Part shown: positions 10,829-11,149 of the stretch, piece after piece
Layout: each line of letters starts with the position of its first letter
Position numbering within the stretch: the first letter of the stretch is position 1
DNA from: Escherichia coli O127:H6 str. E2348/69
Lineage (GTDB): Bacteria; Pseudomonadota; Gammaproteobacteria; Enterobacterales; Enterobacteriaceae
Assembly: GCF_000026545.1 (NCBI RefSeq)
Contig: NC_011601.1
Reading direction: 5' to 3' (one strand)
Length of the DNA: 64,000 bases
Translations under genes and position numbers: made by a program
Notes under the pieces: model-generated
Told to the model about the DNA's origin: nothing
The model's database searches: none
Seen by the model: the letters and a program-made list of their open reading frames with translations, nothing else

Positions 10829-11061
10829 AAAACGTAGTTAAACGATTGCGTTCAAATATTTAATCCCTCCAGCACTCTTTATCATAATGATAAGGAATCA
10901 CTGATTTTGAGAAAAGAGAAAAAGTGATAAATGGGCTGGCAATAATAATTTTCAGGAGTGATTTTAATTCTCATTTGGCACCTGTGAGTTCATTCACAAA
11001 AAGCCATTAAGTTTCGAGCCGCCTCACATTTTTTTATATTTCCCGTCAAACCTGGCAAGAG

Positions 11062-11077
11062 TGGTGCGATTGTTGCT
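11062..11077 (+). promoter_or_regulatory. candidate sigma-54 promoter upstream of ygfK: TGGTGCG-N4-TTGCT
   Basis: GG-N10-GC spacing with perfect TTGCT -12 box about 75 bp upstream of ygfK ATG. Confidence 0.3.
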
Positions 11078-11149
11078 CTATCCCCCTAAACCACCGGATT
11101 TCTCAACACCGGTCACTCAATGATATCTGTATAAGCTAAGGAGAGGGTT

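Follow-up and report, generated by a model that had tools for sequence, protein, structure and literature searches.

The sigma-54 -24/-12 element upstream of ygfK in Escherichia coli E2348/69, with a candidate YgeV enhancer and a decaying operon

We analysed a stretch of 64,000 nucleotides (nt) from Escherichia coli O127:H6 strain E2348/69 (contig NC_011601.1; the window), concentrating on the 321-bp spacer between mocA and ygfK and on the -24/-12 element for sigma-54 (RpoN) that this spacer carries. In the RefSeq annotation, the genes follow in the order ygeV, ygeW-dpaL-ygeY-hyuA-arcC, yqeB-yqeC (on the opposite strand), mocA, ygfK, ssnA, ygfM, xdhD, xanQ and guaD, which together make up the purine/urate catabolism island. 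The genes of ygfK-ssnA-ygfM-xdhD are 2 nt apart, then 50 nt, and the last pair overlaps by 4 nt. Urate is reduced to 2,8-dioxopurine by XdhD-YgfM, YgfK and SsnA perform reductive dearomatisation and ring opening with ureidomethyl-hydantoin (UMH) as their product, and uric acid strongly induces ygfK. We conclude with high confidence that the element at 11061-11077 is the sigma-54 promoter of this uricolytic operon. The promoter itself is a rediscovery and nothing new, since it is already known from EcoCyc (as a prediction), from a chromatin immunoprecipitation sequencing (ChIP-seq) map of 2015 and from an rpoN transcriptome study of 2010. The useful, if incremental, by-products of the analysis are a resolved promoter register, a candidate motif for the YgeV enhancer, a CRP site through which glucose repression probably acts, and the decay of the operon in this strain. 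The features are collected in Table 1.

Table 1. Features of the ygfK spacer, the operon and related sites in the window (distances relative to the predicted transcription start; A1, alignment of the ygfK spacer from 16 genera)
Feature	Position	Strand	Sequence	Basis or remark
ygeW dyad	1211-1223		TATCAATATGAGA	at -234
ygeW sigma-54 promoter	1424-1440	+	CTGGCACACTTATTGTT	ChIP-seq site OS30
Intragenic sigma-54 site IS34 in yqeC	9726-9742	-	TGAGCACGAACCTTGCA	Bonocora et al. 2015
Dyad, candidate YgeV enhancer (upstream activating sequence)	10880-10892		TATCATAATGATA (TATCA-N3-TGATA)	centre -202; arms invariant in A1
Putative degenerate second dyad	10900-10912		ACTGATTTTGAGA	centre -182; A1 and k-mer counts
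Conserved block	10956-10975		GAGTGATTTTAATTCTCATT	A1 and k-mer counts; TGA/TCTCA half-site-like sequences
Perfect CRP consensus	10983-10998		TGTGAGTTCATTCACA	centre -97.5; sequence read
CRP-like element	11013-11028		TTCGA-N6-TCACA	centre -67.5; columns invariant in A1
Sigma-54 -24/-12 element	11061-11077	+	GTGGTGCGATTGTTGCT	sequence read, weight matrix, K-12 ChIP-seq site OS31, conservation
Predicted transcription start	11088	+		motif centre + 19 (convention of Bonocora et al. 2015); 62-nt leader
Weak hairpin	11093-11113	+	ACCGG-N11-CCGGT	+6 to +26 of the predicted leader
Ribosome-binding site and ygfK start codon (11150)	11138-11152	+	AAGGAGAGGG	invariant in A1; annotated start
ygfK 5' fragment, pseudogene	11150-11834	+		first ~228 codons; RefSeq, and comparison with intact ygfK of SCU-115
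ISEc13 in ygfK	11835-13384	-		IS4/Tn5-like, 1,550 bp; transposase opposite to ygfK
ygfK 3' fragment	13385-15807	+		Fer4_20 and Pyr_redox_2 domains
ssnA	15810-17138	+
ygfM	17189-17968	+
xdhD	17965-20835	+
ygfT sigma-54 site, weak	27627-27643	-	TATGCCCATTTATTGCA	ChIP-seq site OS32
ygfT dyad	27809-27821			at -199

The original prediction had singled out the 16-mer TGGTGCGATTGTTGCT at 11062-11077 on the plus strand, and reading the sequence bore it out exactly. GG at 11063-11064 and GC at 11075-11076 have the canonical GG-N10-GC spacing, the -12 box TTGCT matches the consensus, and the -24 box, described there as imperfect, indeed reads TGGTGC, two mismatches away from the consensus TGGCAC. The distance to ygfK, put at about 75 bp, is 72 nt from the end of the motif to the ATG. 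Both boxes have counterparts among 135 ChIP-bound sites, where TTGC occurs in 76 and TTGCT in 24, and where seven have the TGGTGC variant and 26 have T at this position. The predicted start would give a 62-nt leader, and Table 1 of Bonocora et al. (2015) lists a distance of 62 from the predicted start to ygfK.

The strongest published evidence comes from K-12 MG1655, in which the identical 17-mer is the sigma-54 ChIP-seq site OS31 (Bonocora et al. 2015, PLoS Genet). This site has its peak at 3,014,019, a fold-above-threshold (FAT) value of 26, a score of 10.06 with the position-specific scoring matrix (PSSM) and the flag 'P', for predicted in EcoCyc; its occupancy is comparable to that of glnA (21), nac (24) and pspA (21). 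The element occupies the same position relative to ygfK and has the same flanks in both strains, with 100% identity over window positions 11047-11095; the occupancy was measured in K-12. A 51-mer is present as a single copy in 5,164 of the 5,426 complete E. coli genomes. At the level of expression, ygfK mRNA increased 2.1-fold five minutes after induction of sigma-54 and decreased 2.4-fold in a ΔrpoN strain (Zhao et al. 2010), effects that are modest and were obtained under non-inducing conditions. Both the ChIP peak and the dependence on rpoN are thus in agreement with the original prediction. Furthermore, Table S5 of Bonocora et al. (2015), which examined few genera, reports the site as conserved in Citrobacter, Yokenella, Raoultella and Brenneria.

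The strength of the element was evaluated with a log-odds position weight matrix (PWM) derived from the 134 sigma-54 motifs that Bonocora et al. (2015) list from ChIP-seq when ygfK is omitted. The element scored 14.42 bits, second among 127,968 window positions, and in a leave-one-out comparison it ranked 53rd of 135, above the median of the bound sites (13.94). Based on 200 dinucleotide shuffles, 0.005 matches of that score are expected on the sense strand of the mocA-ygfK spacer. The score is not low, and it becomes significant only when the search is restricted to this spacer.

Conservation of the element was assessed in 80 ygfK loci of other species, retrieved from GTDB contigs (one genome per species) with the N-terminal 231 residues of YgfK as the query; the 300 bp upstream of ygfK were scanned at a threshold of at least 12 bits. 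A sense-strand motif was present in 54 of the 80 loci, compared with two on the antisense strand, and it lay 57 to 154 nt before the start codon, except for one Sphaerochaeta metagenome-assembled genome (MAG) with the motif at 261 nt. Nearly all gammaproteobacterial loci carried it, among them those of Citrobacter, Klebsiella, Raoultella, Edwardsiella, Serratia and Hafnia as well as Morganella, Erwinia, Aeromonas, Photobacterium, Vibrio and Shewanella; the motifs of Reinekea and Endozoicomonas scored slightly below 12 bits. Beyond Gammaproteobacteria, it was found in a Rhodocyclaceae MAG, in Heliobacterium and in the Sphaerochaeta MAG, and most spirochaete loci among the 80 were without it. 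In alignment A1, the GG and TTGC columns and their spacing are invariant, and position five of the motif carries T in the Escherichia/Citrobacter/Klebsiella group but C in the rest. Given this conservation and the published ChIP-seq data, the ygfK element stands well beyond chance.

A different register of the same promoter was proposed by Zhao et al. (2010), whose Table 2 prints aaccTGGCAAGAGTGGTGCGATtgtt / TGGCAAGAGTGGTGCGAT at -97 to -80 (window 11053-11070) as the ygfK promoter. On this proposal, the true promoter would be the overlapping upstream sequence TGGCAAG-AGTG-GTGCG at 11053-11067, which offers a perfect TGGCA -24 box and the GG-N10-GC spacing. However, its -12 box is GTGC and not TTGC, it reaches only 8.1 bits compared with 14.4 bits for the register at 11061-11077, and TGGCAAG is confined to E. 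coli and one Citrobacter, whereas TGGTG/TGGCN-N..-TTGCT is conserved in all genera. In addition, MEME applied to the ChIP-seq peaks picked the downstream register (Bonocora et al. 2015). Because the downstream register is conserved across genera and the upstream one is not, the reading shared by the original prediction and Bonocora et al. is the correct one, and that of Zhao et al. is highly improbable; the register at 11052-11068 was rejected for its low score and its lack of conservation.

Several points nevertheless weigh against a working sigma-54 promoter at 11061-11077. The shuffles yield 1.86 expected matches of equal score per 64-kb window, and for this reason the window-wide PWM score alone is not decisive and was not used as proof. 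The top match in the window, ATGGCGCAAACTTTGCT at 20399-20415 on the sense strand inside xdhD (15.6 bits), is absent among the 135 high-stringency ChIP sites, showing that the matrix score alone is no predictor of binding. As the species compared are related phylogenetically, the cross-species counts are inflated by shared ancestry. Sigma-54 sites are mostly transcriptionally silent under the conditions of the ChIP-seq experiment, a genomic SELEX (systematic evolution of ligands by exponential enrichment) screen with RpoN holoenzyme in vitro lists the ygeV/ygeW spacer and not ygfK, and no mapped ygfK transcription start was found in the literature searched.

The silence of many sigma-54 sites under standard conditions and the failure of the SELEX screen to recover the ygfK site would also fit a sigma-54 that is bound but unproductive, with most ygfK transcription coming from a CRP-dependent sigma-70 promoter within the spacer or from mocA read-through. 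The perfect CRP site in the spacer, the inclusion of ygfK among the CRP SELEX targets and the lack of any predicted terminator between mocA and ygfK speak for this explanation. On the other hand, no sigma-70-like -35/-10 pair was detected on the plus strand of 10750-11250, and a sigma-70 promoter in the spacer was rejected on this basis. Moreover, ygfK expression responds to rpoN dosage and deletion and co-varies with other sigma-54/YgeV targets, and a non-productive site is hard to reconcile with the strict conservation across orders that the -24/-12 element and the phased dyad described below both show. We therefore consider an unproductive sigma-54 site very unlikely and retain the -24/-12 element as the promoter of the operon.

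The YgeV iModulon includes ygfK, ssnA, ygfM and xdhD alongside xdhABC, ygeWXY, hyuA, ygfT and uacT, and the island contains a further sigma-54 ChIP-seq site, OS29, at xdhA (Bonocora et al. 2015). The ygeW (OS30) and xdhA promoters resemble that of ygfK in that the sigma-54 element lies 60-85 nt before the first gene, in that a TMTCA-N3-TGAKA dyad, exact at ygeW and a near-match at xdhA, is found 130-235 bp upstream, and in their membership of the YgeV iModulon. They differ in the -24 box, which is the rarer TGGTGC at ygfK, TGGCAC at ygeW and TGGCGT at xdhA; in the -12 box, where ygfK has the consensus TTGCT and ygeW TTGTT; and in ChIP occupancy, with the FAT of 26 at ygfK being much above the values at ygeW and xdhA (3 and 11). 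The proposal that ygfK-ssnA-ygfM-xdhD is under sigma-54 control like ygeW is hence supported by OS31, the rpoN data, the YgeV iModulon and conservation.

Phylogenetic footprinting identified the dyad with its centre at -202 as the strongest conserved block of the spacer. The k-mer counts and the alignment show fixed arms around three variable central bases, with flanks that are variable as well. Exact matches to T[AC]TCA-N3-TGA[TG]A number five in the window, against 0.21 expected, and three of these lie in sigma-54-bearing spacers (ygeV-ygeW at 1211, ygfK at 10880 and ygfT-uacT at 27809). Upstream of xdhA, in locus L082, there are two near-matches with one mismatch each at -152 and -131, 21 bp apart. 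A dyad at -240 to -150 accompanies the sigma-54 motif in 48 of 56 ygfK loci, with 0.0086 expected per locus, and all 23 loci that have no such motif lack it. Distances from dyad to start group around 173, 182, 193, 202, 215 and 224 bp, corresponding to a period of roughly 10.5 bp (R of 0.75 for all 48 distances; R of 0.61 and p ~1e-3 for the 18 distinct distances), and this helical phasing gives the dyad the appearance of a looping enhancer. The putative second dyad lies 20 bp downstream of the first, and its conservation is limited to the right arm and flank, TTTTGAGAAA (10905-10914).

The most plausible ligand of the dyad would be YgeV, which contains PAS, Sigma54_activat AAA+ and Fis-type helix-turn-helix (HTH_8) domains and no receiver domain, and we infer that YgeV binds at -202. 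The dyad is not known to match the Fur, FNR or other known boxes convincingly. On balance, we lean slightly towards the view that the dyad found some 130-235 bp before the ygfK, ygeW, ygfT and xdhA promoters is an undescribed YgeV site, conserved and phased from Enterobacterales to Vibrionales, and that CRP at -97.5 acts as its architectural coupler in Enterobacterales. If true, this would define the cis-regulatory code of a gut-relevant uricolytic regulon and would couple urate catabolism to catabolite control.

Some considerations temper this view. No YgeV binding site and no YgeV-DNA binding data were found in the literature searched, and the invariance of the dyad arms is partly by construction, the dyad PWM having been built from regex-selected sites. 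The dyad could instead be bound by a regulator other than YgeV, such as a purine- or urate-responsive repressor, with the YgeV site located elsewhere, for example at 10905-10914 or 10956-10975. Room for such a regulator is left by the absence of binding data from that literature, by the several other conserved blocks in the spacer and by two dyads that occur inside dpaL and yqeC, where no promoter lies at the distance expected. However, the excess of exact dyads, their presence upstream of ygeW and ygfT with near-matches at xdhA, the distances of -130 to -235 with their phasing of about 10.5 bp, which fit the geometry of an enhancer, the position of the dyad between the two promoters at loci with divergent sigma-54 promoters, and its absence from all 23 loci without a sigma-54 motif make a non-YgeV regulator rather unlikely, and we keep YgeV as the candidate. 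A ygeV homologue was found within the 4-kb flanks of only two of the 80 loci.

The two intragenic dyads, at 3055-3067 in dpaL and at 9489-9501 in yqeC, are without a sigma-54 motif at the expected distance; they could be chance matches or additional binding sites. In several genera, a divergent sigma-54 motif of 13-19 bits is present on the minus strand about 250-700 bp upstream of ygfK (loci L006, L014, L029, L033, L038, L040, L046, L068 and L081). At L006, L014, L046 and L068, an exact dyad lies upstream of both divergent promoters, which suggests a shared bidirectional enhancer. Among the other sigma-54 motifs in the fetched loci, the dyad was found upstream of four of 48, mostly divergent promoters that share the ygfK dyad.

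Between the dyad and the promoter, the CRP site matches TGTGA-N6-TCACA at ten of ten positions, and sites matching at eight to ten positions recur at -97.5 or -98.5 in 17 enterobacterial loci. The genomic SELEX targets listed for CRP include ygfK, ygeV<>ygeW and ygfT<>ygfU, and uricolysis is glucose-repressed. We infer that CRP serves as a bending or catabolite-sensing co-factor at the ygfK promoter. The CRP-like element lies 30 bp away and occurs at -67.5 or -68.5 in 22 loci. The positions of the two elements are fixed in Enterobacterales only, and both are absent in Aeromonas and Vibrionales.

Taken together, these features suggest the following mechanism. RNA polymerase with sigma-54 would sit at 11061-11077 as a closed complex, as ChIP-seq shows for K-12. 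Opening of the DNA would require an ATP-hydrolysing enhancer-binding protein, most likely YgeV, which is encoded about 10 kb upstream; YgeV would occupy the dyad at -202 and the degenerate copy at -182 and reach the promoter by DNA looping. CRP at -97.5, between enhancer and promoter, would probably bend the DNA and provide the link to catabolite control. Transcription would start near 11088 and yield the 62-nt leader, and in E2348/69 the transcript would continue into ISEc13 at 11835, an element with a terminator-like hairpin on the ygfK strand.

This proposed arrangement resembles that of the prpBCDE and glnAp2-type promoters, which combine a -24/-12 closed complex with a distal dyad that serves an AAA+ activator as enhancer and, between the two, a site for a bending or catabolite-sensing protein. 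The prpBCDE promoter is reportedly sigma-54-dependent, activated by PrpR and dependent on CRP. At ygfK, in comparison, a role of CRP is indicated by the consensus site and the SELEX listing, and the contact between activator and DNA would be that predicted above for YgeV.

A comparable regulon has also been reconstructed for Clostridiales, in which DioR controls ygeW-ygfK-ssnA-ygeY, dpaL, yqeB and pbuX (Nie et al. 2019, BMC Genomics). It shares with the E. coli island the use of sigma-54 with a dedicated activator and the same uricolytic gene set, and differs in phylum, operon order and orthology of the activator. The Heliobacterium locus (L081) has a motif of 19.7 bits and an adjacent ygeV-like gene, and the enterobacterial dyad was not found there.

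The ygfK promoter of E2348/69 does not differ from OS31 of K-12, and strains whose operon is intact have an identical promoter region; it is the operon behind the promoter that differs. The ygfK gene is split by ISEc13, whose ends are Tn5-like (CTGTCTCTTGATCAGATCT and ...TGTGTATAAGAGACAG) and which is flanked by a 9-bp target duplication, CCACCATGC, at 11826-11834 and 13385-13393. This junction was found in only one of the 5,426 complete E. coli genomes and is unique to E2348/69 among them. Within ISEc13, the terminator-like hairpin on the ygfK strand (12454-12472) is strong. Further downstream, xdhD carries a CAG>TAG nonsense codon at codon 422 (19228-19230) in comparison with SCU-115. Owing to the insertion in ygfK and the nonsense codon in xdhD, the promoter heads a non-functional, decaying operon in this strain. 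E2348/69 is consequently predicted to be without the YgfK and XdhD steps, which matters for studies of purine and urate metabolism in this prototype of enteropathogenic E. coli.

Some further elements of the locus deserve mention. Hairpins proximal to the 5' end of the leader are predicted in nine of ten genera with differing sequences, and their folding energies are no better than those of shuffled sequences (z of -2.5 to +1.3). Directly 3' of the mocA stop codon, the sequence TTAAACGATTGCGTTC at 10838-10853 has the reverse complement GAACGCAATCGTTTAA, which resembles an operator of the PurR/LacI family (ACGCAAACGTTT...), and in A1 the conservation of this element extends to Citrobacter, Trabulsiella, Pluralibacter and Buttiauxella. 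Finally, the core GCAYGARCCTTGCA of the intragenic site IS34 in yqeC recurs at the equivalent place in the Edwardsiella, Aeromonas, Serratia, Hafnia and Photobacterium loci, and this site may serve yqeB as a conserved internal promoter.

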